Source: Carcharhinus longimanus (taxonomy: Eukaryota). Taken from it: DNA of 64,000 nucleotides. The stretch lies in contig JASCQW010000099.1 in NCBI GenBank assembly GCA_030264375.1, forward strand, positions 17,239,874-17,303,873, read 5' to 3'. Each line of letters starts with the position of its first letter. Within the stretch, counting starts at the first letter, position 1. Below the pieces are notes generated by a model. That model did not search any database and was not told where the DNA came from. It saw nothing but the letters and a program-made list of their open reading frames with translations. A program made the position numbers and the translations under genes. This document shows, piece by piece, positions 17,463 through 56,349 of this stretch.

Positions 17463-18052
17463 TTAAATTTTTGAGTTTCCTCCCCATTGTTTAATGAAAT
17501 TCTGAATGACAGTGAAGGGATATTTCACAGCGTTCGTCACCTCCTCTCTGAACTTCCTCTGTGTGACTGCATAAATAAATGTGTTGGTGCAGGAACTGGA
17601 TAACTGAAGCATTGATCCCAGCATTTCCAACATGTCAGGTGTTTTAAACAGAGCCACTTTGGAACTCATCCGAGGAATTGATAGATACACAACACGTGTC
17701 ACCCATAACACAATAAAACTGCCTGATATGGTGAAGAGTAAAATGATGGATCTTCTTCGATTCTTCATTTCTGGATCGTTCTGCCCCTCCCCGTTTCCCT
17801 GTCCCCTCAGTTTCCTGCGGACTACACTGGCCAGCAGGATCTGCCTGACAGTGAGAGTATTGAGCAGCAGTATCAGCACGAAGGGGAGCACTGGAGTTAA
17901 AATGCGGTCCGTCCAGTCAAAGACTTTCCATACAAGTAAAAAGTAGTAGTCAAATACTATTTGGCAGAAGAATTGTTCATACTTAAAAAACACTGGGATT
18001 TTGGTGAATAAACACAGTAAACTCACCGTTGTGATAACGATGGCTGCTGTTT
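17463..18052 (-). CDS. GPR139/GPR142-like class A GPCR, unit A (TM4 to C-terminus; 5' part lost in gap 18053-18152)
   Basis: Uninterrupted frame with TM4-TM7: LTPVLPFVLILLLNTLTVRQI, DPEMKNRRRSIILLFTISGSFIVLW, LQLSSSCTNTFIYAVTQRKFREE. Confidence 0.85.
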
Positions 18053-18829
18053 NNNNNNNNNNNNNNNNNNNNNNNNNNNNNNNNNNNNNNNNNNNNNNNN
18101 NNNNNNNNNNNNNNNNNNNNNNNNNNNNNNNNNNNNNNNNNNNNNNNNNNNNGATTTTAAGTCTAGTGGCTGTAATCAAAAGCCACATATGTACAAACAA
18201 GAGCAAGAGATCAATTCAACATTGATGTTTAATTTGTGACTGACCATTTTGGCCTTGACTACAGTTCCAAATACCTTTTAAAGATATTCAAAGTGAGCCC
18301 TCATATTACTCATCATCTAGGAGATTTTAGTACCTTTGCTCATTCTTTCTGTCTTGGATTAACTAGGCCTTTGTCTCTTCTTCCCTTATCCAATCCTGTG
18401 CTGTTACCCATGATTAGTCCCATAACTCCCTTCAAACATCCCATCTGCAATCCTCAAACTCAATTTCAGGAGATTCACTGTCTGTCTTTATCTGATTAGT
18501 GCTTCCCCTAATGACTATCTGCTCCAGCCCTTACATGGAATGAATAACTTCCATATTCCAGAATTGGAGTGTTCTTTTTCCCTCTCGTAACTCATCAATC
18601 ACTCATTCCATTGGGATTAAATCTGGACACGCTATCATCTGGAGATGCTCATGTTTTTCGTCATTTCCTACAGTTCATTCCTGCCCAGGGCTTTCCTTGT
18701 CTGTGAAAAACAGCTTGCAACATTCAACAAGTATATTTAATTTGCTGCTCTTTAGATAAAGTGTGGTCACTTCTTAGGATTGATCAAATTATAGCAAAAT
18801 GTAAAACAGGGTATTCTGAATATTTGATC

Positions 18830-19910
18830 TGATTTATTATTGTCATGTGTATTGTTATATAGTGAAAAGTATTGTTTCTTGCTCGCTATACAGACAAAGC
18901 ATAGAAGCAAATTACTGTAGATGCTGGAATCTAAAATCAAAAGAGAAAATGCTGAAAAATCTCAGATCTGGCAGTATCTGTAAGGAGGGAAAAGAGCTGA
19001 CGTTTCAAGTCCAGACGACCCTTTGTCAAAACTAAAAGGAGTAGGCATAGGCCCTTTTCTATGCCTTTTAGCTTTGACAAAAGGTCATCTGGACTCGAAG
19101 CATCAGCTTTGTTCTCTCCTTACAGATACTGCCAGACCTGCTGAGATTTTCCAGTATTTTCTTTTTTTGGATATAGACAAAGCAAACCGTTCATAGAGAA
19201 GGGAAGGAAAGAGTGCAGAATTTGTTGTGCAGTGTTGCAGTCATAGCTAGGGTACAGAGAAAGATCAATTTACTGCAAGGTAGGTCCATTTAAAAGTCTG
19301 ATGGCAGCAGGGAAGAAGCTGTTCTTCATTTGGTTGGTACGTGGACTCAGACTTTTGTATCTTTTATCCCGATGGAAGAAAATGGAAGAGAGAATGTTCA
19401 GGGAATAATAAGTGTGAAGAAAGACAGATGGAAAGACAGCCTTGGACAATTATTTTGTTACCAAGGTGATTTAATCTCTTTTTAAATTATAAAGTGATGG
19501 AACAGGATTGATGGAAACAAGCTGTAGAGGCTGATGGGACATAGACATAAATTAAATGGAAGAGACTCGGACAAGAGCAGGAGGTACATTTATATGCAGA
19601 GGAATGTGCATATTTGAAATTCTGTATTCTGTCTCATCACTGTTTGAGATTTGACCCACTACAGTGGTGTCATCAGCAAATTTGAAAATTGAGTTGGAAG
19701 GCAATTTGGCCACAGAGTCATTAGTATAGAAGAGGAATAGTAGAGAGCTGATGACACAGCCCTATGGGGCACCGGTGTTGAGAATGATCATGCAGGAGGT
19801 GTTGTGCCTATCCTTACTGATTGTGGTCTGTGGCTTAGGATGTTTAGGATCCAGTTGCAGAGGGAGGGGCCAAGACCCAGGCCACAATGTTTGGACATGA
19901 GTTTGGAGTC
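18830..19910 (-). mobile_element. Rex1/Babar-type LINE fragments (18830-19410, 19640-19910)
   Basis: Minus strand near 19670-19780 gives LNTGAP.GCV.S..LF..FKFADDTTVVG. The 3' end matches 7000-7300. Confidence 0.75.
18905..19170. mobile_element. Palindromic Penelope-end-derived insertion (second family) with hammerhead-like motifs
   Basis: Inverted arms of about 100 bp at 18938-19039 and 19064-19170. agacaaagca is duplicated at 18892-18901 and 19175-19184. Confidence 0.75.
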
Positions 19911-20029
19911 ACAGCAATAGTACAAATGAAATGTGTTCCCCCAAAATCAATGAGAAAGGGGAATAAGTTTCAAGATAGTTCAGAGAATAATTTGGGTACT
20001 GATGAAGGAAATCAGGTTATTATTTCTGG

Positions 20030-20340: not shown

Positions 20341-20589
20341 CAGGCAGTTGATCATGTTAACCTAAATTGCATATAACAACCAATTGAAGGAAAAACTAAT
20401 CAATGTCGAAAAGCAACTTCCACAAAGGAAAGAGGAGTTTGCTAACGAAAAACTAGAAATGATGAGAACAATTGAGAATCAATTGTGGAAAGTGGTACAC
20501 TTGACTAAGGAATTGAAATGTCTAAAGTATAAGCATGTGAGTCGTTAAGAAATAACACTCTACCACTCATTGCTGCGCTGAGGAAGTTA

Positions 20590-23075: not shown

Positions 23076-23237
23076 CTACCCAGTCTGGGAAGAAATTTTC
23101 CAGCTTTCTCTCGATTGTTTAATGGAATTCTGAATGACAGTAAAGTGATCTTTCACAGCATTCCTCACCTCCTCTCTGAACTTCCTCTGTGTGACTAAGT
23201 AAATAAACGTGTTTGGTGCAGGAACTGGATAACTGAG
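23076..23237 (-). pseudogene. GPR139-like unit B, TM7/C-terminal fragment only, frameshifted
   Basis: QLSSSCT and NTFIYLVTQRKFREEVRNAVK lie in different frames. Paralogous to 17490-17605. No TM1-TM6 sequence between it and the exon 1 at 24.0 kb. Confidence 0.85.
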
Positions 23238-23965
23238 CCAGCGATAAATCCTCTGCCCTAAGTGTCGTAGGATCTTTAAAATCCACTTGAAAGAGAAGAC
23301 ACAACTTGACTTCAACATTTCACCCTAAAGGCAGCACCTTCAGTAGTGCAGCTTTTCCTCGATATTGCACAGAGCTGTCAGCCTTGAGTTCCATGCAAAA
23401 AACTGGAATGACAATTGAAGCTGGAACTATCTGACTAAGAGACAAATGTGCAACCAACTGAGCTACTCACACATAATGAAGTCGTTACAACAGTGGTGGT
23501 GCTTCCAATTCACCTCATTGACTAGTGCACACTCTAAAATTACAAAAGGTGCTATATAAATGCAAGTTGTTCAGTAATCAGTGTCAGCGAACATTGCGAA
23601 GGAATTGAAATGATTCCTTAAATGCCATTCAGAAATATTATCGAGAGGGAGAGAGAAAGAAAGAAAGAAGGTTGATAAAAATTACAATTCATTCTCATTG
23701 CACTCTGGAGATTAACCTAATTGGTTTTGGAAATCAATAAGATCCCGGTTAGATAGGATTTAGGACTGATTGGCCAAATACAGGAATATTGAATAAAGCA
23801 GATTGATTCGAAAGTCTAAAACCATGGAGAGGCTGTAACTTGAATAAGGGAAAATATCGAGGAATATCAATGATCAACAGGATTTGAAATAATAACCACA
23901 GACATAAGAAACCAACAAATTCTACTATCAGAAAAGTCAAACCAGCAATGATCATAATAACTCAC

Positions 23966-24046
23966 TTAGAACTCCAATCACTGCAAGGATGTGATAGAAA
24001 ATGGGTTCAACATCAATGAGCATAAATAATAGAGCTCCAGATGCAT
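23966..24046 (-). pseudogene. GPR139-like unit B, first coding exon
   Basis: MLIDVEPIFYHILAVIGVL from the ATG at 24023, then a phase-1 GTGAGT donor. The upstream ATG at 24046 is out of frame by 1 nt relative to the paralogues. Confidence 0.75.
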
Positions 24047-24089
24047 GTTCTGTGATGAACTCTATTGTCCTTTAGTTTCATTGATTCTC

Positions 24090-25555: not shown

Positions 25556-26740
25556 GGGTGCAATGTCACAATCTCGTTGTGCTCGTGCATCGGAGTGGTG
25601 AGGTTGTAAGATTGCATGAGAGGCCAAAAATGCGAATCGAGCCTGTTTTCCCACTGGTTCCCATCATATAAAATGCTTTTTCCTGGGCGTTATGAGATCA
25701 TAGAATGAACTTCATGCAAGTGTGTGCATGACACTGAGGCAGCGTGCACGACAGCATCATACTGCGAAGCTCTGACATCCCCAGCCTCTTCAAGGGGCAG
25801 CCCAAGCAGTTGGGCTGGCTGCTGGAAAATAAGGGAAATCCGCTAAGGACATGGCTGATGATGCCAGTTCAGAGGCCACAGATGGAGTTGGAGACCCATG
25901 ACAAAGAGGCTCACGCTGCCACCCAGTCAATCAAGCGATGGCATTAGGCTCCTCAGGATGCAGTTTCATTGTCTAGACTGCTCTGGCAGGGCCCTCCAGC
26001 ACAGACCCCTGACAGTTTCCCACATCGTTGTGGTGGGCTATGTGCTCCACAACCTGGTGCAGCAGTGGGAAGGCTTCTTGGAGGAGGTGGAGGGTGACCT
26101 GGTGGACATCCCGGGGAGGGGGGGTTGGCAGGGGAATGGTTGGGGAGGGGGGAGGTCCAGGAGGATGTGGAGATGGAGGAGGATGAGTAGCAGGAGACCA
26201 AGGAGGATCTGGGGGAGGAAGGCTGGTGGCAGCAAGGGTCCANNNNNNNNNNNNNNNNNNNNNNNNNNNNNNNNNNNNNNNNNNNNNNNNNNNNNNNNNN
26301 NNNNNNNNNNNNNNNNNNNNNNNNNNNNNNNNNNNNNNNNNNNNNNNNNNNNNNNNNNNNNNNNNNNNNNNNNNNNNNNNNNNNNNNNNNNNNNNNNNNN
26401 NNNNNNNNNNNNNNNNNNNNNNNNNNNNNNNNNNNNNNNNNNNNNNNNNNNNNNNNNNNNNNNNNNNNNNNNNNNNNNNNNNNNNNNNNNNNNNNNNNNN
26501 NNAAAACAAGTCTGACTCCTACCTGGTCACCGCATGCACACTGATGTCTTGGACTATGTTTGGGTGGCAGTTGAGGGCACCACCGTTGCTGCAATGTCCC
26601 AGAGATGGGAAAGGGGTGCGATTGTAGGGTCCAGGTTGAATGACACTGTGGGCCTGCAGGGCACCGACAGCTGGTACAGTTTGTGGTGACTCTTTGGAAT
26701 GCCACGTCAGTCAGGAGTATGCCATGGGCGTTGGGATATG
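25556..26740 (+). mobile_element. PIF/Harbinger transposon remnant (HARBI1-like DDE transposase C-terminal half at 25735-26075, frameshifted)
   Basis: HDSIILRSS..GWLLENKGNPLRTWLMMP..EAHAAT, then IRLLRMQFHCLDCSGRALQH..VLHNL and an acidic tail. Boundaries approximate. Confidence 0.8.
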
Positions 26741-26744
26741 AAGG

Positions 26745-27439
26745 TTTAAACAGAGCCACTCTCCCACTCATCTGTGGAATTAAGAGAGAGACAACACATG
26801 TCACCTATAACAGGATTAAACTGCCTGATAAAGTGAAGAACACAACGATGGATCTTCTTTGATTCTTTATTTCTGGATCATTCTGCTCCTCTCTGTTTCG
26901 CTGTCCCCTCAGTTTCCTGCAGGCTAAGCTGGCCAGCAGGACGCGCCTGACGGTGAGAGTATTGAGCAGCAGTATCAGCACAAAAGGGGGCACTGGAATT
27001 AAAATACGGCCGAAAGCTATCCACACAGGTGAATAGTAGTAGTAGATCTGATACATAACAAACATAACTGAATCGTACAGTCTGTATTTGGAAAACACTG
27101 GGATGTTGGTTAACAAACTCAACACACTCGCCGTTGTGATGATGGCTGCTGTTTTCTCAGTCTAGTATTTTATCTTCAATTTCTGGAAGCAAATGGTCAC
27201 CATTCGGTCAAAGTTGAAGACGACTGTGAGCCAGACAGAGCTCTCTATGGCGGTGGATGATATCACTTCTCTGATGTTACAGAACAAATAATACAGATTT
27301 AAGAAATTCATTTTGCACACAATGACGTCAAGAATGATGACCAGTGGATCTGCCAGGGCCATAGAAATTAGATACCAAGTGACATCTTTGGAAAGACCAC
27401 ACCTCCCTCGAGATAGAGCCACAATTGTGACAAAGTAAG
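26745..27439 (-). pseudogene. GPR139-like unit C, exon 2 (TM1b-TM6)
   Basis: TIVALSRGRCGLSK..YLISMALAD..SVWLTVVFNFDRMVTIC..PFVLILLLNTLTVR..DPEIKNQRRS. In-frame TAG at 27162-27164 and 26805-26807, acceptor reads TG, and TM7 is missing. Confidence 0.9.
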
Positions 27440-27829
27440 CAATTTAAAAAAGCAGTTACATAAAATTGTCCATTGTATAGAATGAAAAATATGACAAGCT
27501 AAATGGATAAATGTTGGAATTTAAAACATTACAACTGAGATTGTGTCAAGTCAACTTGCCAACTAACCAATACTCTTCTCATGCAGTATAAATTGTTGTT
27601 CTGTTTAAAGTTGATATTCTTGTGAAATGTCCATATCAATGTAAGATGAGAATGTTCAAAAGCACGTCTCTTTCTTCAGCAATCCTCAATTCTGCACGAG
27701 CAAATCCCAAAAATGGAGATTGATAATGCAGTGGGTGGTGAAGGAAAGTTACAGTGTTTAGGGGCAGCAGGTACTGCACCTAAAGATCAGCCATGATTTT
27801 CTGTTGAGGTCCTGGGCTCCCGTCGACAC

Positions 27830-28339: not shown

Positions 28340-31300
28340 GTGACATAGAAACATAGATAGAAACATAGAAAATAGAAGCGGGAGTTGGCCATTTGGCCCT
28401 TTGAGCCTGCTGCACCATTCATTTTCATCATGTCTGATCATCAAAATCAATACCCTGATCCCACCTTCTTCCCATATCTCTTGATCCCTTTAGCCCCAAG
28501 AATTAAACTTAATTTCTTCTTGAAATCACACAATTTTTTGCCCTCAACTACTTTCTGTGGTAGTGAATTCCATACATTCACCACAGCCTTGGTGAAGAAA
28601 TTTAGTCTCACCTCGGTACTAAACATTTTACACCTTATTCTCAAAATGTGATCCCTAATTCTGGACTTCCCCACCAGCAGAAACATTCTTCCTGAATCTA
28701 CCCTGTTTCATCCTGTTAGAATTCTGTATATTTCTATGATACCCCCACTCACCCTTCTAACCTCCTAACTGACTTAATCTCTTCTTATATGACAGACCTG
28801 CCATCCAAGGAATTAGCCTGGTCAACCTTTGCTGCACTCTTTCTAATAGCAAGGACATCCTTCCTCAAATAAGGACACCAAAACTGCACACAGTACTCCA
28901 GGTGTGGCCCCACCAATGCTCTATACAATTAAAGTAAAACATCTATATTCATATACTCACATCCTCTTGCTATGAAGCCCAGCATACTATTTGCCTTCTT
29001 TACTTCTTGCTTTAGCTGTGCACTTACTTTCAGTGAGTGATGCATGAGGATACCAAGGTCTCACTGAGCTTCCTACTCTCTCAATTTATGCCTGGTCAAT
29101 AATAATCTGTCTTCCTGTTTTTGCTACCAAAATGGATAACCTCACAGATGTCCACATTATACTGATTCTGCTATGCATATGCCCACACACTCAGCCTGCC
29201 CAAATCATGCTGAAGCATCTCTGCATCCTCCTCACAGCTCACCCTTCTGCCTAACTTTGTATCATCTGCAAAGGTGGAGATAATATATTTAATTCCCTCT
29301 CCCAAATCATTGATACATAATGTGAACAATTGATCCCTAGCACAGATCCCTGTGGTTCCCCACTAGTTACTACTTGCCAATTGAAAAAAATACCCACTTC
29401 TGCCAATTCTTTGATTCCTATCTGCTAATCAGTTTTCAATCCATCTCAAGACACCACCCGCAATCCCATGCGCTTTAACTTTACATAATAGTCTGCTATG
29501 TGAGACCTTTTTGAAAGCTTTCTGAAAGTCCAAATAAACCACATCCACTGGCTCCCCCGGTCAACTTCACTTGTTACATTTCAAAGAATTCCAATAGAAT
29601 CGTCAAAAATGATTTCCTTTTTGTAAATCATGTTGACTTTATCTGATTATACCACTGCTTTCCAAATGCTGAGCTATGAAATCCTCGATAATGGACTTTA
29701 CCAATATTAGGCTCACTGATCTGTAGTTCTCTTTTTTTCTCTCTAGCTCCCATTTTGAATAATGGGCTTGCATTAGTTATCCTTCAATCTGCAGAAATCT
29801 GTCCAGAATCCAAAGAATTTTGAAAAATGACCTCCAATATATCCACTATTTCCTGGGCCACTTCCTTAAGCACTCTGAGTTGAAAATAATCAGGGCTGGA
29901 GATAAAACCACCTTCAATCCTGTCAATTTCCCTAAAACCATTTTTCTACTAATACTGATTTTCTTCAGCTCCTCACTAAAACTTTTCTCTCTGAACTTCT
30001 GTACATTATTTATCTCTTCCTTTGTGAAGATAGAAGCAAAGTGCGAATTTAGTTCCTTGGCCATTACTATGTTCCAAATTCTGAATTCTCCCGTTTCTGT
30101 CCGTAAGGGGCCTACATTCATTTTTGTCAATCTTTTTCTCTTAACATACCTTTAAAAACTTCTACAGTCAGTTTTTATGTTCCCCACGAGCTCACTTTCA
30201 TAGTCTCTTTTTTCCCAATTAAATCAATCCTTTGATCCTTCTTTACTGAATTTACAGTTAAAGTTTATTTATTAGTGTCACTGTAGGCTTATGTTAACAC
30301 TGCAATGAAGTTACTATGAAAACCCCCCCAGTTGCCATACCCTGGTGTCTGTTCAGGTACCCTGAAGGAGAATTTAGTATGACCAATGCACCCAACCAGC
30401 ACATTTTTTGGACTGTGGGAGGAAGCCAGAGCATCCATACAAAACCCATGCAGGCACAGGGAGAACAACTCTGCACAGACAGTGACTCAAGCCAAGAATT
30501 GAACCTGGGTCCCTGGAGCTGAGAGTGCTAACCACTGTGCCACCAATAATGCTCCCAATCCTCAGGTCTATTTTTTTTCTTGCCAATTTGTATGCTTCTT
30601 CCATGAATTCAACACTATCTCTAATTTCCCTTTTAATCCATGGTTTGGCCACAATTTCCTTACCACCAAACATGAATAAACAACTTCTGGAGTTCACCTA
30701 TTCGTGGCATAAATGCCTGCCATTGCCTATCCACTGCCCTTCCTTTCAGTAATGTTTCCCAGTGTATCAAAATCAATTCAAACCTCTATCATCATAGTTC
30801 CTTTGAGATTCAGGGCCCTTGTTTCAGAATCAACTGCATCATTTTTCACTTTGAGAATGAATCCTATCATATTATGGTCAGTGATCTCCAAGGATTCTCT
30901 CATAACTAGATTGCCAGCTAATTCTTTCTCATTGCAGAGTATCCGAACCAAGATAGCCTGCTCCCTTGTTGGTTCCCTTGGGAGATTGAATATAAAAGTA
31001 GGGAGGTCTTGCTGCAACCGTACAGGGCACTGGTGAGGCCGCAGCTGGAGTACTGTGTGCNNNNNNNNNNNNNNNNNNNNNNNNNNNNNNNNNNNNNNNN
31101 NNNNNNNNNNNNNNNNNNNNNNNNNNNNNNNNNNNNNNNNNNNNNNNNNNNNNNNNNNNNTTACTTTCCCAATCTAAATGCAGATTAAAGTCACCCATAA
31201 TCCTTTAACACATGCATCTTTGATTTCCTGTCTAATGCTATTCCCAACATTACCACTATTTTGATGATTTGTAAACCACCCCCACAAATTTTTTTTTGCC

Positions 31301-31470
31301 CCTTGGTGTTTGTTAATTTGACCTATACAGATTCTACATTGTCTGTTCTAATATCTTTCCTCAATAGTATTAGTATGTCAATATTTCCTTTAATCAACTA
31401 TGCAACTCCACCATCTTTCCCTTTCTGACTGTCACTCCTAAACATCGAATAGTCCTCAATGTTTTGTTCC
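28340..31470 (-). mobile_element. Long decayed CR1 LINE (endonuclease, RT, 3' tail) in the intron of unit C
   Basis: (tttctatg)n tail at 28345-28375; NFFTKAVVNVWNSLP; FADD near 29265; REPTREQAIL; MGDFNLHLDW. Confidence 0.9.
30255..30545 (-). mobile_element. V-SINE nested in the CR1 (duplicated at 32740-33030)
   Basis: SINE head and core interrupt the CR1 at the same point in both duplicate copies. Confidence 0.85.
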
Positions 31471-32013
31471 AATCTTGGGATGTCGCTTCAATATCAATCT
31501 ATTGTCTTCGAAAGACTTTAGGATATCCTAAAGTTGTGAAGCGCACACATGAGTTCCAATCATTTTTTGTATATAATGCGTTAGTCTGTGTTAGAAAACA
31601 TTTCAAAATCATTGAAAAGATTTTTAATCACACATCTCACACCATTGAAGAAAACTGCACCCGCCAATATAGGCTGAGACATATACCTATGTAAGTAGAG
31701 GGAGAGAAATAAAAATTACAATGGATCCTCACTTCATGCTGGAAATAAATCAATTGGATTGTGGAAATCAATCCATGGCTAGTTAGAATCCATTGACTGT
31801 GGCAGAACAAACACAACAGTATTGACTGAAGCAGATTGACTCCAGTCTGAATATCTGAAGCAGTGGAGAGGCTGCAGTAAAGGATATTGAGGAATGTCAA
31901 TGATCAAGCAGAATTTGAAATAATCACCAAAAACATAAGTACTTGTAACAAATTCTACACCAGCAAGTTCCATTATCAAAGCAATCAAACCAGCAATGGT
32001 TATGATAACTCAT

Positions 32014-32095
32014 ATAGAACTCCAAACACTCCAAGGATGTGATAGAAAAAGGGTGCAACATGAGAGAGTAGAAATATTACATCCACCTGAACCAT
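32014..32095 (-). pseudogene. GPR139-like unit C, first coding exon (donor mutated)
   Basis: MVQVDVIFLLSHVAPFFYHILGVFGVL plus 1 nt, followed by ATGAGT where unit B has GTGAGT. Confidence 0.8.
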
Positions 32096-33509
32096 GCTCT
32101 ATGATGAATTCTATTGTCCTTTAGTTTTCATTGACTCACTGAACTTACTCAGTGGAACCATTTATTAATATAGGTGAGTGACACCCACTGAGACCGTGAG
32201 GCTTACATAAACATTGTTATTAGTTCCAGTAATTGGACTAAAGATTAGACATGCATGAAACCTCAATTAGTTAAAGGAAAACAGAATTGTTTTACTTATA
32301 CTTGATCAACAGAAACACAAGCACTGAATAGAAACATCATGGAAGTGGCTACAGAAAAGAGTCCTTTCAACTTCTCATACCTGCTCTATCCACTGAAAAA
32401 ATGAACCACTCACACCCCTTTCACTCTAATTTAACTCTACTTCAGCCCCCACAGAAACTTCCTTCTCTCTGAATTTCTGGTACGTTATTCATGTCGTCCT
32501 TTGTGAAGACAGAAGCAAAGTACGTATTTAGTTCCTCAGCCATTTCATTACTTTGTTTCAAATTCGGAATTCTCCTGTTTCTGTCTGTAAAGGGCCTATA
32601 TTCATTTTTATCAATTTTTTTCTCTTTATACATTTTTTAAAAAAACTTTTAGTCAGTTTTTATGTTCCCCACTCGCTAACTTCCATACTCCTTTTTTCCA
32701 ATTAAATCAATCCCTTGATCCTTCTTTGCTGAAATTACAGTTTAAAATGTATTTATTGGTGTCACAAGTAGACTTATGTTAACACTGCAGAGAATTTACT
32801 ATGAAGAATCCTTAGTTTCCACACCCTGGTGCCTGTTCGGGTACCCTGAGGGAGAATTTAGCATTGCCGATGCACCCAACTAGCACATTTTTCAGAGTGT
32901 GGGAGGAAATCAGACCATCCATAGGAAACCCAAGCAGACACAGGGAGAATGTGCAGAATCCATACAGACAGTGACCCAAGGTGGGAATTGAACCTGGGTC
33001 CCTGGAGCTGAGATTGCAAACCACAGTGGCATCGGAACTGCTCCCAATCCAAAATTGACATGATTTATCATACCAATTTTTATGCGTTTTCCTTGAATCT
33101 AACACTATCTCTAATTTCCCTTTTAATCCATGGTTTGGCCACAATTTCCTGACCAACAAACAGGAATAAACAACTCCTGGAATTCACCTACTCCTTCCTT
33201 AAATGCCTGCCATTGCCTGTCCACTGTCCTTCCTTTAGTAATGTTTCCCAGTCCATCATAGCCAATTCATACTGCAGACCATCATAGTTCCTTTACTGAG
33301 ATTCAGAACCCTTGTTTCAGAATCAGCTACGTCATTATTTACTTTGAGGATGAATTCTATCATTTTATGGTCACTCATTCTTCAGGGTTCTTATTGTTCC
33401 AGAAAACCATCCTGTATACATTCCAGAAATTCCTACTCTATTGTACTGTGACTAATTTTACTTTTCCAATCTAAATGCAGATTAAAGTCACCCATAATCA
33501 CATTTGTTC

Positions 33510-34978: not shown

Positions 34979-35060
34979 ACAGAACTCCGATCACTCCAAG
35001 AATGTGATAGAAAACAGATGTGACATGAGAGAGCAGTAATATTACATCCACCTGAACCAT
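34979..35060 (-). pseudogene. GPR139-like unit D, orphan first exon
   Basis: MVQVDVILLLSHVTSVFYHILGVIGVL plus 1 nt, then ATGAGT. No exon 2 of its own. Confidence 0.8.
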
Positions 35061-37310: not shown

Positions 37311-40290
37311 TGTAATAAATCCAGGGCAACTCGATGTGACTCAAAGTAACAAGGAATTTCTGGCCGATGATAAATAATATTTACAACAGAAGGTCAGGCT
37401 GAATCAATATGTGACTGTTCAACTCTCTTCCCAGGATCCAACCACAGGACCTCCTCGACCCGGGATATGACTCTTGCTCCCGATTGCCTCAGCTTCTCAT
37501 CTCAACAGTCCATAGATTCCAGCTCGATCACGTGGCCCTGAGGGAGAGCTCCCTTAAAAAGGGGCCACGCCCGCACATCCCTTCCCCCCAACTCCTGAAT
37601 TCATCAATGGAGGAAACAAAGTAAACCATTAGCATAGGCAAACAATATTTTATTACAGGAAAGCGGGAATACCCCCGGGAAAAACCCAACATAAGTTTAG
37701 TCGATCTGGGGATTCCAGACCTGGGTAGAATGTTTCAGTTCTGTGGGATCATTTCAGAATTTGGAGAATCCAGCCAGACGGATGTAAAAGGCAAACACAT
37801 CAGTCTGAAGTTGAGCTCTTCTATAACTGTTGATTCCTCAGTTACAGTAACCACCAGTTGCTCAGATCCCTCGTTTCCAACCAGAATCCAGGTAACCAAT
37901 CCTGGCAACTTGGAATGCATGGGAGGGGCCATCTATTGATCCCCTGTATCGCTCATTGCTCTCCCCCTCAGATGTGTTTCTTGTGATGACAGTCTTGTAT
38001 CTCCACGACATGGGAGACGATTCCTGTTCTCTCCACAATCTTACCTACCACACAAGCCAGTCCTGCTGCAAATTTTCTGACCATGACTGAATCCTCAACC
38101 CAGAACGCTTCTGTCTGTTTTCCTTGAATTGTGATTTCCTCTCTGAGAAGCTTGCCAACCCGCACCCTCCCCACCAAATCTGGGAATATCATGTCCGATT
38201 GTCGCTTAAGCTGCATCCCATGAGTAGCTCAGCTGATGTGAACGCTGTAGTCGTATTTGGCATGGTGTTAAAAGACAACAAAAAGCTGGCTGTACGTAGA
38301 GGAAGAGGCTGATTGAGTTGTGTCTTCATCAATGACTTGAACATTTCTACTTTACGCTCCACTAGTCCATTTGAGACTCAGTGGTGAGGTGCTGACCGAA
38401 CATGGAGGTTGATAAATTTGATTGATAAGTTTTTGGAAATACTATGCTGTGAATGTTGTGCAGTTGTCTAACACATCACACTTCCATATGCCATGAATGG
38501 CAAAAACTTTCCTTAATTTGACAAAGGTGGCAGTGTTTATTGTGGACTTCATCAACTTCACATTAAACCACTTAGAGTGTGCATCTACTCTTATAAGAAA
38601 CTTGTGACCCATTAATAATCCAGCAAAGTTGATATGTCTCCTTGCCCAGGGTCTATCAGGCCACTCCCATGGATTCCGTTTCACCAGCGGTAGCAGCAAG
38701 CCCATTGAGCTTCACAATTTGGGTGTTGATAGTAGTCATGATGTGGAGATGCCAGCANNNNNNNNNNNNNNNNNNNNNNNNNNNNNNNNNNNNNNNNNNN
38801 NNNNNNNNNNNNNNNNNNNNNNNNNNNNNNNNNNNNNNNNNNNNNNNNNNNNNNNNNNNNNNNNNNNNNNNNNNNNNNNNNNNNNNNNNNNNNNNNNNNN
38901 NNNNNNNNNNNNNNNNNNNNNNNNNNNNNNNNNNNNNNNNNNNNNNNNNNNNNNNNNNNNNNNNNNNNNNNNNNNNNNNNNNNNNNNNNNNNNNNNNNNN
39001 NNNNNNNNNNNNNNNNNNNNNNNNNNNNNNNNNNNNNNNNNNNNNNNNNNNNNNNNNNNNNNNNNNNNNNNNNNNNNNNNNNNNNNNNNNNNNNNNNNNN
39101 NNNNNNNNNNNNATTTCACAGGTTATTCCCAACCTTCTGCTTTGGCAGAGTTTTACTAACTCTGCTTTCTCATATTGACACCCTCCGTGTGACCATCTTG
39201 TTTACTTTGGACAATACAGGGTCTCTTTCTGTTCACATCGTTACATGTTTAGCAGAGACTGGAAATGATAGCAGGTACAGAACCAGTGGAATCTCTTGAG
39301 GAAGCGATGGTGCTGCCACTGTTTGTGGTGAAGATAACCCGCTCAGCGCGTCTGTGTGTGATATCTGTGTTCCAGGGTGATGCTGAAATGTGTAACTGTA
39401 CACTGCTAACAAGACAGCCCATGTCTGCAGCCTTGAAGAGGCAGTTGGCGGTTCTTGATTATCTTTTCTGAATTGACGTAACAATGGCTTGTGGTTGGAA
39501 ATTATAACATGTCTCATAAGTATACTGATGAAATGCTTTGATTGCACAGATGACCAACAAACTTTCTTTATCTTTCTTGGAAGACTTTTATTCTGAATCT
39601 GACAATATTTTAGAAGCAAAGGCAAGGCCCTTCCGTTACAACAGGCACTGGGTGGGACACACGGTGGTGCATTGCAGGTTATTACCAAAGCTTTAGTTGG
39701 ATTGAAGAACATGAACAAAGCATATGACTGCAGAACAAAGGCTTTCCCACCTCCATCGTTGATGTTTCTTTAACTTTGGTGGACATTTTTGAAAAAAATC
39801 TACCATAGTAGTTCACCATGCCCAGAAATGACTTCAACTCTGATATGCCTCTGGCTGTTGAACCTCCTTAATGGCCTTAACTTTCCGTTCTGAAGGATAT
39901 AGCCCTTTGCATCTACCATAAAACCCAAATATGTAACTTCCTCTGCTTGGAACATACATTTCTCCCATTTCAACCTAACCCCTGCTTATTTAAAGTTTCT
40001 CAATACTTCTTCCAAATTTGATCTGTGTTTCTCAGGTGAGGTTCCTGTAACTAATACGTCACCAAGATAAACCACTAAATTAGAGATGCCTTGGAATTAG
40101 CTCTCCAATGTACACTTGGAAATGTTGGAAGCTGTTGAGCCTCTAATAAGTAACAGTTTGTACTGGTACAAATCCTTGTGGGTGCTGACAGTAGGTAGCC
40201 TTTATGAATCTTCATCCAGCTCCAGATGCTGATGGGTGTGACTGAGGCCTAATCTGGTATATTTTAACCCTCCAACTAGTTTGGCCTCTC
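37311..40290 (-). mobile_element. Decayed Gypsy LTR retrotransposon (RT, RNase H, integrase, PPT, 3' LTR at about 37311-37577)
   Basis: RT VVYLGDVLVTG near 40060; RNase H SNHKPLL..ASSRLQTW..HTDALS; integrase WEWPDRPWARRHINFAG..VDAHSKW; purine tract GGGGGGAAGGGA directly before TG at 37577. Confidence 0.85.
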
Positions 40291-45699: not shown

Positions 45700-46604
45700 T
45701 TATTTGACATATTCAATAATCACAAAGAATGGATGCATTATTGCGTTTTTCAACTTCTCTCTGAATTTAGTCTGGGCCAGTGCATAAATGTACGTGTTTG
45801 TACAGGAGCTCAGTAGTTGGAACATATCTCCGGTATATTTGGCGATAAGTAAGGGATCCGAGTATTGATCGGGTTTGTAATATCTGTCTGTAATTCTGGA
45901 AATGAGGAAAAATACAACATATGGCATCCACAGCACAATAAAAGCACCAGAAATGGAGAAGAGTAAAATGATGGATTTCCTTCGGCTCTGCATCTCTGGA
46001 TCATCGCTGTTCTTGATGTTGCGTTGACCTTGCAGTGCTCTGCGACTTCAATTAACCAGCACAATGTGTCGCACAGTTAGAGCGTTGAGAAATATTATCA
46101 GAAAGTACGGCAACAAGGGGTTTAAAACTGTGTCAAGCTAGTCATAAATGACCCATCCTGGCACAGTAAAGTAAGTTGCTNNNNNNNNNNNNNNNNNNNN
46201 NNNNNNNNNNNNNNNNTAGACAGGCTCAAAAGCAAAATACAGAGGGATGTTTTTGAAACAGAACACAACACACATGGTCACTATAATCACAGCTGCAGTT
46301 TTCTCTCTGCAACACTTCTGTCTGAATTTTTGACAACAAATGAAGACAAAGCGATCGACGGTGAAAGCCACCGTCAACCAGACAGAGCAGTCAACAACTA
46401 CATAGTTTATAACCTCATTAATTCTCACTATGGAAGTGAAGTGTAGAAGTGAAAATGGAAAATAGTAGTAAAGAATGTAATAGATGATCACATTGAAAAT
46501 AATAACCAGTAGGTCCACAGTTGTCATACCCACCAGGTAAAGAGTGATCCCTTTGGATAGGCCGCAGCCTCCCCGGAACAGAATCACAATTGTCAGGAAA
46601 TTAG
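45700..46604 (-). pseudogene. GPR139-like unit E, full-length exon 2 with two premature stops
   Basis: ttgcag acceptor at 46605-46606; NFLTIVILFRGGCGLSK..SVWLTVAFTVDRFVFIC..QLLSSCTNTYIYALAQTKFRE. In-frame TAG at 46138-46140 and TGA at 46048-46050. Confidence 0.9.
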
Positions 46605-47643
46605 CTGCAAAGAAAAGAACAGGTTTCCCAATTTGTTACATTGAATTTCTTGGAAATAACAGCCTACAATCAGCTCATATACTTCAATAGGTCTATGCTG
46701 CTTGTTCATTCTTCACAAACACCTCTACCCACCCTGCTCCATCCATCTCACCCTATCAACATAATCTCCTACTCTATTCTTCCTCATTTACTTATTCAGC
46801 TTTGCCTCAATAAACAAGCTTATTATGTCTGTCTGGGTAACAATGCTGCACAGATTAGAAGGAAACAAACACTCTCTCAAACTAGAATATTTTTAGGGAG
46901 GTGAATTGAGCAGGTGACTCCCCTTCCAGCCAGGTCTCTGTACAATGATGTTGGATCACAACCTGTCTCAACACTCCAGCCTCAGTCTCACCAAAAGGTG
47001 TGCTGGATTCTAACATCTGGGGCCCCCTCCAACTTCCAAAATTGATTAATTTAATTATATGGAACCTTGTTATGAGTCCAATTGACCATGATTTTAGGGA
47101 CCAATTTCATTTTCTGGAGGTCACATGGGATACCGGAGAGGATTTCCTGGCAGTTTTGCATGGGTGACACTGGGGCAGAGAACCAAGCCTCAAAAAGTTT
47201 GAAAGGTGAGAGGTTAGATGCAATCAGTGATTTTACTGAAATTTTAAACTCCGTCTGGTTTACTGTTATCTACATTGTATAAGGATAACATTGACCAATG
47301 AGAGCAATCAATCCCAATCAATGAGTCTACAACAGTTCCGACATGACAACAGGAACCCCCACCCCTCCGTCTAAAGTGGGAACCAGAGGTCTGAAAACAC
47401 TTGTTCCTCCTCAAGATGGAACATTTATCCCATCCCAAACTCCTCATTTGCTGCATCCCAAAGTGTTTCTGAAATAAATAAAGTGAATCTAGAGCAGAAA
47501 GTGCTGCCTATTGAAGGAGGAGAGGAAACTGGATTCAGCACGAAGAGAGAAAGTCTCAGCTTTTAGACATTGAGAAATCCAGCAAGAGAACAGAGTTAAA
47601 GACTGATTGAAAGAAACAAAACCCACCAGTTTTAGCTTCTTAC

Positions 47644-47713
47644 CGTGAACTCCGAAGACTGCAAGAAAATGATAATAAATAAAAGCTGTCTGTTCAAGTG
47701 TTGATAATTCCAT
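47644..47713 (-). pseudogene. GPR139-like unit E, first coding exon
   Basis: MELSTLEQTAFIYYHFLAVFGVH plus G, then a GTAAGA donor. Splices in frame (phase 1) to 46604. Confidence 0.85.
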
Positions 47714-47788
47714 TTTCAGAGAGTGGGGACAACACCAAACAGTGAGAACAGAGCTGAAGCAGCAGAGTTTCTTCATTAGTGATACTCC

Positions 47789-47800
47789 CTTTATATAAAG
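47789..47800 (-). promoter_or_regulatory. TATA box of subfamily II (palindromic ctttatataaag; also 49406-49417, 49583-49594, 52993-53004)
   Basis: TATATAAAG about 75 nt above the ATG, identical in all copies. Confidence 0.65.
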
Positions 47801-47916
47801 AAACTAAAACCTCCTGNNNNNNNNNNNNNNNNNNNNNNNNNNNNNNNNNNNNNNNNNNNNNNNNNNNNNNNNNNNNNNNNNNNNNNNNNNNNNNNNNNNN
47901 NNNNNNNNNNNNNNNN

Positions 47917-47952
47917 CTCCTTGGAACATGATCACAATTGTCAGCAAATTAG
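47917..47952 (-). CDS. GPR139-like unit F, start of exon 2 (rest in gap 47817-47916)
   Basis: tttgtag acceptor followed by NLLTIVIMFQG; the intron is paralogous to that of unit E. Confidence 0.75.
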
Positions 47953-49264: not shown

Positions 49265-49334
49265 TGGGAACTCCGAAGACTGCAAGAAAATGATAATAAA
49301 TAAAAGCTGCCTGTTCAATTGTTGATAATTCCAT
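49265..49334 (-). CDS. GPR139-like unit F, first coding exon
   Basis: MELSTIEQAAFIYYHFLAVFGVP plus A, then a GTAAGA donor; in phase with 47952. Confidence 0.85.
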
Positions 49335-49567
49335 ATTCAGAGAGAGGGAACGACACCAGTGAGAACAGAGCTGAAGCAGCAGAGTTTCTTCATTAGTGAT
49401 ACTCCCTTTATATAAAGAAACTAAAACCTCCTGNNNNNNNNNNNNNNNNNNNNNNNNNNNNNNNNNNNNNNNNNNNNNNNNNNNNNNNNNNNNNNNNNNN
49501 NNNNNNNNNNNNNNNNNNNNNNNNNNNNNNNNNCAGTGAGAACAGAGCTGAAGCAGCAGAGTTTCTT

Positions 49568-52380
49568 CATTAGTGATACTCCCTTTATATAAAGAAACTA
49601 AAACCTCCTGTGATTCCATTCACTTTCAGAGGGAGCGCAATCAGTTCATGGTCTCTGAACAAACAGATGGATTTTAAAAATGGATTTTAACAGGGATTGG
49701 GCAATACTGTTTTTACATTGGAGCCAAATGGTTCCAATTGAAGAAAATTGTTCTAAATATATAAATAAAGGAAATATTAAATCATTTGGAGTTTTATGAA
49801 CTGGAAGATTAAAGTTGCATTGTGGGAAATTTTTCCCTGTATCAATGTAAAGAGTCAGACAAATTAGAGGCAAATATATTTCTGTTATTGATTCTCAAAT
49901 CTGAAGCATCAAAACCAGGATTCCTCCACTTGCCATCAGTGAGGCTGAGTTTCCTGGTTTATAGTTACTATTTATATTTATTACAGTCATTTACCTTTGA
50001 AGCTGGAATGATTGATTTACTTTTAGACCTTTTCCTGTGTAACCAAGTTGGACATGAATGGATTTTAACTGAATCAACTGCAGACTTAAGTTTCTTGGTG
50101 AACTCATCCTGGAGTGTGTTTTCCTGCTTATCTGCATTATTCAGACAAAGCCAATGATGCTCTTGCTGGTTTTTCAAGAGATTTACCCAATCAGTCCATC
50201 TCCTCTGCTCTCCCCCCATAACCCTGCAAATCTTTCCTTTCCAAGTATGTATCCTATTCTCTTTTGGAAGTTACAACTGAATCTGATTCCATTAATCTCT
50301 CCAGCAGTGTCTTTCAGAAATAATGATCATAATATTGTTAGGTTTGCAGTGGAAAACTTTCCCCAGGTGGAGGTTTAACTTTCATGAGTTGAAAAGAGAT
50401 CTAAACCAGGTGGATTGGAGTCAAATGTTCACCTTCTGAAAACTGTAACATCATATGGAGAACGTCTTGGGGAAAATTCAGCGGAAAGAATTAAGGGGAG
50501 GGTGGTAAGCTGGTTAGAAGTGTAGCCATCAAGGTGAAGTTATACCTTTTGGTGAAAATGCATTTTGAACGTAGGAAAGAATGATAATGTCAAAAAGGGG
50601 TTTGGGGATTCAGTACTACAGCCTAAAAAGAGGCTTTCAAGTGGATAAAGTGAAAGAGTTAAATTTAAGTGTTTGGTGCTGGGACCACTACGAATTCAAA
50701 CTGATGTACATTATCTGGATTCAGAAACTCAATGCAGAGTGACCAGTTTTGCAGCAGATACCAAATTGAGAGGGGCAGTGGAATAAGGAGAGAAACTACA
50801 GAATGAGTTGAACAGGTTACTTCAGTCAGTGGAAGAATGGTGGTGAAAGCTAATGGAGACAGTGTAAAGTGTTACAGGGCGGAAGGAAACCTTGACAGTA
50901 CGTGCTTAGCCAATGGTGCAGAAAATGACAGGAATGAAATTGAAAGAGACCTCAGAATCTGAGTCAATGCTGAATATCAACAACAAATGAGGAACAGCAA
51001 TCAACAAAGCCAATTGAATATCAAACAACAATAATGTAATGGAATTGATGCTATGTTGAGGCAGACTCTAACTAAAAATGGGACTGAATTTTACATTCAT
51101 CACTGATGCGTTTATAGTTGGTGGGGGGAGAGTGTACAATTCCTCAGATGGATTTCCTGCTGAGTTCTTGCCCACTTGTTCTGGTCCCTCCATAATTTCA
51201 TCCTTGGGTGGCAGAGACCTTGGCTGCAAACCCCTCCCTTCCTCTCCCCCACCTCCCCCCCAATATTTGCCCACTTGAGGCCCTTCACTATTATGGAACA
51301 CTCAATTGACATTTCCCACTCAGCCCCAATTTTCAGACTGGCCATTGTACTGCTGAATCATTACAATGCAGAAAAAGGCCATCCAGCCCATTAAGTCTGC
51401 ACTGACTCTCTGAAAGAGCATCTTACCCAGGCCCACCACCCCTCCTTATCCACATACCCCTGCACATTTCCTGGAGGATTTCTGGGAAACGCCCAAAAAT
51501 AAATTGGGTTCAGATCTCAGTCTGGAAGGGGCAGGAGTGCTTTCATCAGTAGCCTCCTGTTATCATTGGACACTGCCACTTTAAGTCTGGTAACCGCAGA
51601 ATCTAGCCCCACCCAAGCCTTCCCTTCAATTTCCAAATCCCTCTCTGACCATCAAGTTTCAGACCTCCCCTCCCCTTCCCATTCCAAGACCCCACAACTC
51701 CTCTGTTCTTGGACACCCGGGAGTTAGGCTTTGGGGCCTGTTTGCAGCTCCTGCCAGGAGGAGGGAGCTGCCGGGATTGGTCACCAGCTCTCTCAGGCAG
51801 GAGTTCCTCCTGAGTGACGGGTGTAAGGCCCCCCTCCAGTCAATTATCTCTGGCTGGGATGTTGGCATTTTTCAGATTGGGTGATGAATATGTGTCCCTT
51901 TTCTGGTCACATTCAAACGGCTGAAAAATGGGAATTGTATTTACAACAGATGGAGATTGGGAAGTGAACACATTGCAACAATTCTGATGTGACCATTAGA
52001 AAAGCACAATACCTCCCAAACAAGAAACTTTTACCTTTGTAATTTATTCCAGGATAATAGCAAGAGAAAAACACGCTTATGTTTGTACCTGTGAGTTCTC
52101 TCTCTCCAAATGGTTGTATTGAAGAGCATTACTGTATTCCTTAAATCCATTCTTCAAAGGATGTTCACATTGTTTGCATTGGTATTTATTGCCATGATGT
52201 TTATTTCCAAAATAACATTCAATAAAATGGTGATCCATATTGCAAGGATCATTTCCATGTACAGAAAGAGTGAGATTTGCATTGATATTGCACCATTCTG
52301 TTCCTCAGTAAGTCCCAAAGTCTTTCACAGCAGTGAGGTACTTTGAAGTTACTTACTGTTGAAAATTGGGAAATGTTGTA
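49568..52380. repeat. Upstream unit of subfamily II, copy 1 (copy 2 at 52978-55790; older partial copy at 42740-43360)
   Basis: Collinear similarity over about 2.8 kb, including shared nested repeats. Confidence 0.9.
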
Positions 52381-52384
52381 CTGA

Positions 52385-52977: not shown

Positions 52978-55790
52978 CATTAGTGATACTCCCTTTATAT
53001 AAAGAAACTAAAACTTCCTGTGATTCCATTCACTTTCAGAGGGAGCGCAATCAGTTCACGGTCTCTGAACAAACAGGGTCAATGGATTTTAACTGGGATT
53101 GGGCAATACTGTTTTTACATTGGAGCCAAATGGTTCCAATTGAAGATTATTGTTCTAAATACGTAAATAAAGGAAATATTGACTCTTCGCTGCCTTATTC
53201 AGATATTAATAATTTGGGGTTTCATGAACTGAAAGATTAAAGTTGTATTGCGGGAAATTGTGCTCTGTATCAATGTAAAGAGTCAGAGAAATTAGCAGCA
53301 AATATATTTCTGTTATTGATTCTCAAATCCAAAGCATCAAAACCAGGGATCCTCCATTTGCCATCAGTGAGGCTCAGTTTCCTGGTATATAGTTATTATT
53401 TCACGTTACATTACCAATTATTTACCTTTGAGTTTGGAGTGTTTGATTTACTTTTAGACTTTTTCCTGTGTAATCTTGATGAGCATGAATGGATTTTAAT
53501 TGATTCAACTGTAGATGTAAGTTTCACATTGAACTCATTCTGTAGGGCGTTTTCCGGCTTGTCTGCATTTATCAGGAGAAGGCAAAGATGCCCATACTGA
53601 TTCTTCGAGTAAGTTAACCAATCAGTCCACCTCCTCTGCTCTTCCCCCATAACTCTGCAAATCTTTTCCTTAAACTGTATACCCCATTCTCTTTTGGAAG
53701 TTACCACTGAATCTGATTATATTACTCAATCAGGTAATCCCTTCTAGAAAGAGTGATCATAATAGCTTTAGGCTTACAGTGGTTATGGAAAAATCAATAG
53801 TGAAAACTTTCACCTGGTAGAGGCTTAACTTTCAGGAGTTGAAAAGAGTTCACAGCCAGCTGAATTGGAGTCAAATATTCATCTTCTGAAAGATATGAAA
53901 GATACAGGAGATGATTTGGGGAAAATTCAGTGGAAGGAATTAAGGGGAGGGTGGCAAGCTGGTTATAAGTATAATAGCCATCAAGATGAAGTTGTACATT
54001 TTGGTGAAAATATATTTTGAATGGAGGAAAGATGGATATTATAAGAAAAAGGGGTTGGGAGTTCAGTATTCCAGCTTAAAAAGACCTTTTCAATTGATGA
54101 GGTGAAATAGTTAATTTCGACTTGGTACTGGGACCACTATGAGATCAAACTGCGATAAATAATACAAATTCTGAAACTCAATGCAACGTCAAATTTGCAG
54201 TAGTTGTCAAACTGAGAGGAGCAGTGGAATAAGGAGACTACAGAATGAGTTGCTCAGGTTACTTCAGTCAGTGGAAGAATGGTGGTGAAAGTTAATGGAG
54301 ACAGAGTAAGGTATTCCAGGTCGGAAGGAAACCTAAGCAGTAAGTTCTTAGTGCAAGAATGAAACAGAAAGAGACTTCGGACTTGGAGTCAATGCTGAAT
54401 TTCAGCAATAAATGAGGAGCAGCAATTTGCAAAGCCAATCGAATACTAAATGAAAATAATGTAATGGAATTAATGCTACGTTAAGGCAAACGCTAACTAA
54501 AAACGTGACAGAATTTACATTCACCTTTGGTGGCTGTGTAGATAGTGGTGGTGAGTGTACAATTCCTCAACTGGTTCTCTTGCTGAGTTACTGCCCACCC
54601 GCCCCTGTCCCTCCACAATTTCATCCTTGGGTGGGCACGGCCTTGGCGCAGCCCCACCTTCCTCTCCCTACCTCCACCCCTCGCAATACTTGCCACTTGA
54701 GGCCCTTCATTGACTCATTATGGACCATTAAATGGCCATTTCCCACTCAGATCCAATTTTCAGACTGGTCATTGAACTATAGAATTACTACAATGTTGAA
54801 GGAGGCCATTCAGCCCATCGGGCCTACACTGACTCTCTGAAAGAGCATCCTCTCCAGGCCCACCACTTATGTGTATCCCTATATCCCTGCACATTTCCAG
54901 GAGGATTTATGAGGAAAGCCCAAAAATAAATTGGGTTCTGGCCTCGGTTGGGTAGGGTCAGATGTGCTTTCAGCAGTAACTCCCTTTTATCATCAGATTA
55001 AAGCCTGGTAACCACAGGATCTATCCCCTGTCCCAGCCTTCCTACTGATTCCCCAATCCCTCTCTACACATAATCCTCCAAGCCCACCACCGTCCCCCCC
55101 AACCTCTCCTCCCTTCCTCAGCCTAAAACCCCACAACATCCCAATTCTTGGACACCCTCGAGTTTTGGCTTAGGACCCTGTTTTCAGCAACTGCCAGGAG
55201 GATGGAGCTGCAGCTCTCTTAAGGTGGTACTTCCTCCTCAGTGACGGATGTAAGACCTGCCTGCAGCCAATTACCTCTGGTGGCATGTTGGCATTTTTCA
55301 GATTGGGTGATAAATGTGTGTCCCTTCCTAGTCACATTCAAACAGGTGAAAAATAGGAATTATATTTAGAGCAGGTGGAGATCGGGAAGTGAACACATTG
55401 CAACAATTCCGAGGTGACACCATCAGAAAAGCACAATACCCACCAAAGTTGAAACCTTTCCTTTTGTAACTGATTCCAGGGAAATAACAAAATAGAAACA
55501 CACTTGTGTTTGTGTCTGTGAGTTCTCTCTCCAAACTGCTGTATTAAAGAGTGTTAATATATTCCTTAAATCCATTCTTCACAGAAGGTTCACATTGTTC
55601 ACATTTGTAGTGCCATGATGTCTGTTTCCAACATAACATTCAATAAAATGATGATCCATGTTGTAAAATTCATCTCTCTGTACAGGAAGAGTGAGATTTG
55701 CATTGATGTAGCACCTTCCACTTCCTCAGTAAGTCCCTAAGTCTTCCACAGTAATGAGGTACTTTGAAATTAGTGGGAAATGTGGCAGCT
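52978..55790. repeat. Upstream unit of subfamily II, copy 2 (promoter of an unassembled unit G)
   Basis: Starts at a gap with the same TATA block; collinear with 49568-52380. Confidence 0.85.
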
Positions 55791-56247
55791 AATAATTACC
55801 AAGGCCTCACCGATAACACTGAGATCGTTGAACAGACGTTCTGGCTGGGGTTTTCTGGTTGTGCTTGACCCAAGACTAGAAAATCCTGCCTGGGGCCGAT
55901 AGACCTTTGCATGGTCCTGTCCCTCTCATTCTGATTCGCAGGATAGGAAGTTCCCGCCCTGTAACTTTGGAGACATTGATTACGGGATAAATATTAGCCA
56001 GAAGACTCAGAAGATCTCCATTCAATTTGTTCAACTTAGTGACTTGGGCACTTCCACAGCCACCTAACAGGGGAGAGGAGTCTTGATTTATTAGCTTGTT
56101 TGAAATGCACGTTTGAAAGTTCAGTTCCAGATTGTTTATGGGCTTAGAGTAAGTATCAATCCCAGGAGAGAATTTAAGATAAAATTTAGCAGAATGCTAT
56201 CAATGCTTTGTTACTTGTTTTCATGTTGATTTGGTTATTAGACACAA

Positions 56248-56349
56248 TCAAAAAAAAATTATTGCACTTCTCAACTTCTTTCTGAATTTAATCTGAACCA
56301 GTGCATAAATGCACATATTTGTATAAGAGCTCAGCAGTTGGAATGTATC
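56248..56349 (-). pseudogene. GPR139-like unit H, TM7 fragment
   Basis: DTFQLLSSYTNMCIYALVQIKFRKKLRSAIIFF*, homologous to unit E DMFQLLSSCTNTYIYALAQTKFREKLKNAI. Cut by the CR1 insertion at 56350. Not in the ORF track. Confidence 0.8.

Follow-up and report, generated by a model that had tools for sequence, protein, structure and literature searches.

The genome of Carcharhinus longimanus (assembly GCA_030264375.1) carries on contig C99 (JASCQW010000099.1:17,239,874-17,303,873) a 64,000-nucleotide stretch of DNA, here called the window, in which a tandem array of receptor genes occupies positions 17463-56349. Translated searches combined with reading of the minus strand recovered eight minus-strand units in two subfamilies, A (A1-A4) and B (B1-B4). 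This agrees with a sequence-only reading of the same DNA, which had described about eight head-to-tail units resembling the receptors GPR139 and GPR142, at least five of them disabled in different ways. The head-to-tail order holds inside the window, whereas outside it two neighbours lie on the plus strand. Five units are broken by stops, a lost acceptor, an AT donor, deletions or reduction to remnants; the other three (A1, B2 and B3) end in N gaps, and none is demonstrably intact. The window is a decaying, mostly broken corner of a two-exon family of class A G-protein-coupled receptors (GPCRs) that numbers several hundred copies.

In the gene plan of the family a phase-1 intron separates a short first exon, some 21-32 codons long, from a second exon of 300 codons. 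In the window the first exons end in YH(F/I)L(A/G)V(F/I)GV with a phase-1 donor, and exon 2 begins just before N1.50. The short N-terminus, the phase-1 intron in transmembrane helix 1 (TM1) and the motifs listed by the sequence-only reading were all found, namely RGxCGLSK in the first intracellular loop (ICL1), SVWLTVxFxxDR in TM3, DPExxxRR(K/R)S before TM6 and SSCTNTxIY in TM7. A large part of exon 2 is present in only three units, at 46604-45700, 27443-26742 and 18050-17463.

The sole whole two-exon gene of the window is B1 (unit E). Its first exon (47644-47713, minus strand) holds 23 codons and one base with a GT donor at 47643, and the same exon is found in intact genes on contigs C927 and C328; an intron of 1039 bases separates it from exon 2 (45700-46604, minus), which runs from the end of TM1 to the stop codon and includes Ns at 46181-46216. 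Two in-frame stops, TAG at 46140 and TGA at 46050, rule out unit E as an intact gene. Since it is still 91% identical to the intact C927 copy, B1 is a pseudogene that died recently. A public run close to the C. longimanus genome (X1) keeps the TAG and reads CGA at 46050, so that one of the stops is supported while the other is a variant or an error; the mismatch at 46050 may reflect an assembly error, a variant or a paralogue that is very close in sequence. The same run also differs from the window at 46014 and 45937, and TGG stands at 46140 in runs from two other organisms, in short contigs that mix paralogues.

The remaining B units are fragments on the minus strand. B2 retains exon 1 (49265-49334; MELSTIEQAAFIYYHFLAVFGVP) with a phase-1 GT donor and a TATA element about 85 bases upstream, and the first 36 bases of exon 2 (47917-47952; NLLTIVIMFQG), after which an N gap follows. 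B3 (52978-55772) consists of the upstream region and TATA element of a B-type unit, is 78% identical to 49568-52351 over 2871 columns and ends at an N gap with no coding sequence visible. B4 (56257-56349) is a 3' remnant of a B-type exon 2, covering TM7 and helix 8, whose upstream part is cut off by a repeat (tblastn E 2e-8; 83% DNA identity to the intact B gene on C328). The gaps at 49434-49533 and 47817-47916 are bordered by the same 77 bases, and because the gap-flanking sequence is identical the order of the B pieces may be a product of the assembly. The same promoter and 5' untranslated stretch (49355-49433, 49534-49612 and 47740-47816) borders three 100-N gaps, which is a sign of collapse at near-identical copies.

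Subfamily A likewise lies on the minus strand. A1 (17463-18050) runs in open frame from TM4 to the stop codon and matches Pfam 7tm_1 at E 7e-8; its 5' part falls within the N gap at 18053-18152 or on the far side of it. A2 keeps exon 1 (23969-24046) with a GT donor and its original ATG out of frame, together with a frameshifted 3' remnant of exon 2 from TM7 onward (23115-23283), TM1-TM6 having been deleted; the flank of this remnant is 82% identical to 17151-17607. Exon 2 of A3 (26742-27443) has lost its acceptor, carries Y in place of N1.50 and stops at 27164 and 26807, and its 3' end is replaced by unrelated sequence; an A-type exon 1 with an AT donor (32017-32095) is probably its first exon. 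A4 (34982-35060) is an A-type exon 1 with the donor GT changed to AT and no exon 2 downstream, and belongs to a local duplication together with a piece of a long interspersed element (LINE). Of four A-type first exons from beyond the window, three keep the GT donor.

By eye, putative decayed LINE reverse-transcriptase pieces, a putative pol remnant of long-terminal-repeat type and a DNA-transposon-like piece were seen at 28700-33400, 37900-40200 and 25700-26700, the last-named piece taking the place of the A3 3' end. A 26-base satellite upstream of the promoters was sought: a tandem-repeat scan of the window detected none, and no such array recurs in 76 loci, of which only 12 include exon 1, with gaps just upstream of the B promoters.

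The array extends beyond the window into a 264-kb cluster on C99 that is 21% N and mostly broken, and which adds eight exon-2 pieces and a third subfamily. To this third subfamily belongs the only intact exon 2 found in the cluster (L047, C99:17,351,376-17,352,239), whereas complete two-exon B genes reside on the small contigs C927 and C328.

The family as a whole is far larger than the sequence-only reading had supposed. With a C-terminal query all 150 scored candidates (of 838 candidates) matched, the weakest at E 3e-22. The exact TM7 pattern occurs at 317 genomic places (control 1) and the exact TM3 pattern at 258 (control 0). On contigs C1-C99, for which both lists are complete, 30 of 63 TM3 matches pair with one of 87 TM7 matches; the union amounts to about 450 loci, and capture-recapture gives 670-750, a rough figure that assumes independence and counts fragments. 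The copies are clustered on many contigs, and several hundred loci rule out a family of one or two genomic copies. Inflation of the count by haplotypes was considered and rejected, as only one pair among 76 intact exons is more than 90% identical; their median identity is 49%.

Intactness was assessed in 80 of 100 listed TM7 matches (of the others, 13 were already in the data set and 7 were left out), a sample in which C27 and C81 are over-represented because the list follows contig order. Exon 2 is intact in 49 of these loci, runs into gaps in 10 and is broken in 21. With three broken loci and one gapped locus set aside for scoring below 30 bits with the family profile, 49 of 67 resolvable members, or about seven in ten, are intact. 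In the databases, the best 120 of 1699 homologous protein clusters are all chondrichthyan (sharks, a ray and a chimaera), and 119 of them are named probable or putative GPR139. The earlier expectation that a multi-copy chondrichthyan family might already be labelled GPR139-like by annotation pipelines is thus borne out by their 'probable GPR139' models.

Membership of class A follows from several lines of evidence. Among five exon-2 fragments, three match 7tm_1 at E 6e-6 to 7e-8, one at 1e-3 and one not at all; the same five gave no match at E 0.1 to the Pfam families of odorant receptors (ORs), trace amine-associated receptors (TAARs) or type 1 vomeronasal receptors (V1Rs), and the nematode chemoreceptor family Srw (PF10324) matches weakly (E 3e-5). 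D3.49, R3.50 and W6.48 are each present in 75 of 76 intact exons, so that 7tm_1 is accompanied by D3.49-R3.50, W6.48 and N7.49/Y7.53, although the invariance of CTNT is partly produced by the TM7 search pattern itself. The model of a catshark orthologue shows the seven-helix class A fold (pLDDT 86.5) with about four residues before helix 1. Peptide receptors align with it at Z 27.0 and a root-mean-square deviation of 2.9 A over 265 residues, in a comparison whose class A rows are near ties and do not discriminate; GPR139 is not among its 50 rows, which is uninformative for the same reason. The cysteines of TM3 and the second extracellular loop (ECL2) are present in 73 of 76 members. Both have been lost from the B subfamily in all ten shark proteins checked (window 46604-45700; L002, L003), whereas the chimaera member keeps them, and L022 has also lost both.

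Among solved structures GPR139 is the best match (44.6 bits, E 1e-10), and the sequence-only reading had placed the array in the GPR139/GPR142 clade. The true GPR139 of C. longimanus was located by motif search as one copy on C128; its identity is 99% with a Mustelus model and 87% with the human protein. A GPR139/142 profile run against 50% representatives led to a coelacanth protein that scores 189 bits with the family profile and 116 bits with the GPR139/142 profile. This unnamed receptor, which we call L3 (coelacanth XP_005988539.1, catshark XP_038675532.1), has one copy here (C142:45.84 Mb, L140) and is found in sharks, sturgeon, teleosts, amphibians including Xenopus, turtles and squamates at about 50-66% identity across groups; no bird or mammal appears among the best 120 of its 145 matches. 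Two database models fuse L3 with TMEM183A, suggesting that the two genes are neighbours. A second unnamed relative of GPR139, L4 (C27:20.41 Mb, L141), is orthologous to bichir XP_028654722.2.

Trees were built in a quick version of 83 rows and a careful version of 35 rows picked from these, and the two are in agreement. In the careful tree (paired support values) the family forms one clade (100/100), with L3 as its sister (95/87), followed by L4 (96/93) and three amphioxus genes (95/90). GPR139, GPR142 and lamprey and hagfish genes make up a separate clade (100/100) that joins the family side at 99/98, and the wider chordate GPR139-related clade is set apart from the sampled invertebrate receptors at 99/98; the quick tree leaves open this deepest join as well as the order among the family, L3 and L4. 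Forced grouping of the family with GPR139/142 is rejected by the approximately unbiased (AU) test (p-AU 0.018 and 0.023). The family stem is long (0.95), and its exact sister is therefore less sure than its exclusion from GPR139/142. Median identity of the family is 29% to L3 (range 24-32%) versus 20-24% to GPR139/142 (range 20-27%). The TM3/ECL2 cysteine pair is shared by the family, L3, L4 and amphioxus and is missing from GPR139/142.

The placement within the GPR139/GPR142 clade is thus overturned: to judge by the sequence comparisons, the family appears to be a cousin of GPR139 and not a set of its copies. It probably arose from a GPR139-related gene, and its closest living relative would be L3, a single-copy receptor of jawed vertebrates. 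The intron that the sequence-only reading had placed in GPR139 at the same position in TM1 proved to be there: the phase-1 acceptor just before N1.50 is the same in GPR139, L3, L4 and the family loci, and characterises the wider clade. In the tree one chimaera protein falls with the B subfamily (96/94), which points to a diversification that began before the chimaeras split off, with one chimaera row behind it. The rapid turnover proposed earlier consequently applies in part; copies die often, while the subfamilies themselves are old.

Intact copies evolve under constraint. Over 30 disjoint pairs of at least 60% identity dN/dS is 0.22 (range 0.10-0.42, with many dS values near or above 1), a purifying signal implying that the intact copies are working genes. 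By region, dN/dS is 0.26 in the outer half, 0.18 in the inner half and 0.20-0.25 in the pocket. Column entropy, with the search motif left out, reaches 2.16 bits in the outward half but 1.14 bits in the inward one. At eleven positions lining the pocket of GPR139 (PMC8807744) the average is 2.54 bits against 1.43 for 118 TM positions, a value reached by none of 20,000 random draws. This combination of a hypervariable pocket with a conserved cytoplasmic face resembles that of a sensing repertoire. GPR139 responds to L-Trp and L-Phe and prefers Gq, and its pocket residues E3.32, F3.33, H5.43, R6.51 and N7.38 (same source) are fixed in five of five GPR139/142 rows and variable in the 76 family rows, where R6.51 is retained in at most 2, N7.38 in 7 and H5.43 in 19. 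The suggestion that the family inherited amino-acid sensing by descent from GPR139 accordingly loses its support.

Part of the family lies among V segments. On C191, between 1.49 and 5.61 Mb, 16 family loci alternate with 24 V-set matches (L016, L034-L036, L145-L148), and the arrangement on C3142 (L149) is alike, with a family gene 2.3 kb from a V segment that has a 23-spacer signal. Five V segments examined in three stretches of C191 and C3142 carry the heptamer-23-nonamer recombination signal, and one that was tested matches antibody and T-cell-receptor (TCR) alpha V domains; from the motif and the signal type we infer a TCR alpha/delta array. V-set matches are also found near family clusters on C10, C81 and C119. 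The TRAV genes of human, mouse and sheep have OR genes in their midst (PMC4574546), so that a TCR V neighbourhood does not imply an immune function and fits both a sensory and an immune role.

What, then, does the family do? We put at about even the chances that its members serve sensory cells as a repertoire of chemical sensors. Unequal crossing-over among repeats would multiply and delete the tandem units, every receptor would have a small ligand of its own, waterborne or peptide-like, and the many ligands would converge on one shared G protein, most likely through a Gq/Go-phospholipase C route. That route is suggested by the Gq preference of GPR139 and by catshark olfactory neurons, nearly all of which express Go and TRPC2 according to PMC10116579. 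The family would thereby fill the role held by odorant receptors in bony vertebrates; an OR profile run on the C. longimanus genome gave three strong full-length matches out of 24.

Several observations weigh against such a sensory role. ORs and TAARs have one coding exon, and a two-exon family differs from them. Many GPCR families have a variable outer half, positive selection was not seen in the pocket by crude pairwise counts (dN/dS 0.20-0.25), and at least 16 family loci are interleaved with TCR V segments. The catshark olfactory neurons have already been explained as microvillous cells of the type 2 vomeronasal receptor (V2R) kind (PMC10116579), and the top 50 genes of a catshark 'brain and olfactory epithelium' library (PMC11979771) include no GPCR, a weak objection because no one member of so large a family would be expected to rank high. 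With these points in the balance we advance the fuller proposal more tentatively, at somewhat less than even chances: that cartilaginous fishes have in these several hundred genes one more vertebrate chemoreceptor family, which grew independently out of the GPR139/FMRFamide-receptor lineage, is sparsely expressed in chemosensory cells, olfactory or other, in place of the missing ORs, and is seated in a TCR V array as mammalian ORs are.

Mammals have expanded formyl-peptide and MRGPR receptors, and by analogy the family might be an immune or barrier repertoire that detects microbial or parasite products on leukocytes or epithelia. We consider this unlikely, though it is the most serious competitor of the sensory reading. 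The alternation with 23-spacer V segments on C191, the gene close to a V segment on C3142 and the V-set matches near three further clusters all speak for it, and a variable pocket would fit pathogen ligands just as well. Against this stand the OR genes among mammalian TRAV genes, the finding that most sampled clusters, that of the window included, are not shown to lie inside V arrays, and the pairwise counts, which showed no excess of amino-acid change.

Internal signalling, in which the receptors would respond to neuropeptides or metabolites in brain, gut or gonad and continue the role of the FMRFamide/MIP-receptor and GPR139 lineage, is distinctly less probable. A review tying the GPR139 lineage to the MIP, proctolin and FMRFamide receptors (PMC12208981), the match to peptide-receptor folds, for what a non-discriminating comparison is worth, and the age of some subfamilies, about 80% conserved between shark orders, are all compatible with it. 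Hundreds of unlike pockets with roughly three in ten copies dead would, however, demand equally many internal ligands, and single-copy relatives, GPR139 among them, are still present in the genome.

That the array is a functionless by-product of amplification with repeats, or a count inflated by assembly duplicates, seems very improbable: the window cluster is gap-rich and mostly broken and the assembly comprises 68,774 contigs, but purifying dN/dS in 30 of 30 pairs, the single pair above 90% identity among 76 exons and the persistence of orthologous subfamilies across sharks and a chimaera largely refute it. Least credible of all are direct GPR139/GPR142 duplicates that sense aromatic amino acids, to which the best match in the PDB, the common intron position and the shared lack of the NPxxY proline lend some appeal; an identity of only 20-27% and the poorly kept pocket residues speak against them, and the rejected grouping in the trees refutes them as regards descent.

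No description of the family was found in the literature searched, a coverage outside which most subscription journals lie. GPR139 names do not occur in the supplements of PMC3964593, PMC11372145 and PMC13188829; the places inspected in the PMC13689627 supplement (2 of 13 and 2 of 14) are rows of ortholog tables, and the main text of PMC10620051 makes no mention of GPR. The whale shark genome paper describes cartilaginous fishes as relatively poor in GPCRs (PMC8455134), the catshark is credited with 34 V2R genes and four to nine genes in each other olfactory family (PMC10116579), and the word 'cartilaginous' is absent from the text of the GPR139 review (PMC12208981). The reported poverty in GPCRs and olfactory receptors sits oddly with the large olfactory organs of cartilaginous fishes, and several hundred receptors under selection have been hidden under a misleading pipeline name. 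Whether they turn out to be the missing sensory repertoire or an immune set, the result would be new, and sparse sensory expression, if true, would make them a chemoreceptor family new to vertebrates. The trees further bring to light L3 and L4, two unnamed relatives of GPR139 that jawed vertebrates carry in single copy; L3 occurs in ray-finned fishes and Xenopus, in which its ligand and the cells that use it are open to study.

Among known systems, the chondrichthyan RefSeq and UniRef entries named 'probable G-protein coupled receptor 139' (e.g. XP_038654761.1) are the same family, and those from catshark, white shark and horn shark share 80-82% identity with the unit E subfamily; the label is a pipeline name only and wrongly suggests orthology. 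L3 shares with the family the intron, the ICL1 cysteine, the TM3-ECL2 cysteine pair, RKS before TM6 and TQxKFR after TM7, and differs in being single copy and in keeping R6.51. GPR139 and GPR142 have in common with it the wider clade, the phase-1 intron before N1.50 and a 7.50 position without proline, but possess a fixed pocket and no TM3 cysteine. The srw chemoreceptor genes of nematodes expanded out of the FMRFamide-type peptide receptor lineage; despite the weak Pfam match (PF10324, E 3e-5) they represent an independent expansion in another phylum, and srw sequences are absent from our trees. A parallel in organisation is provided by the ORs, TAARs, V1Rs and V2Rs, which likewise form clusters with many pseudogenes and combine a short N-terminus and a variable pocket with a conserved cytoplasmic face; mammalian ORs even share the location in a TCR V array. 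Their ancestry is different, as the lack of any OR or V1R family match indicates, and it is the family described here that has a coding intron and in which pairwise counts show no positive selection.

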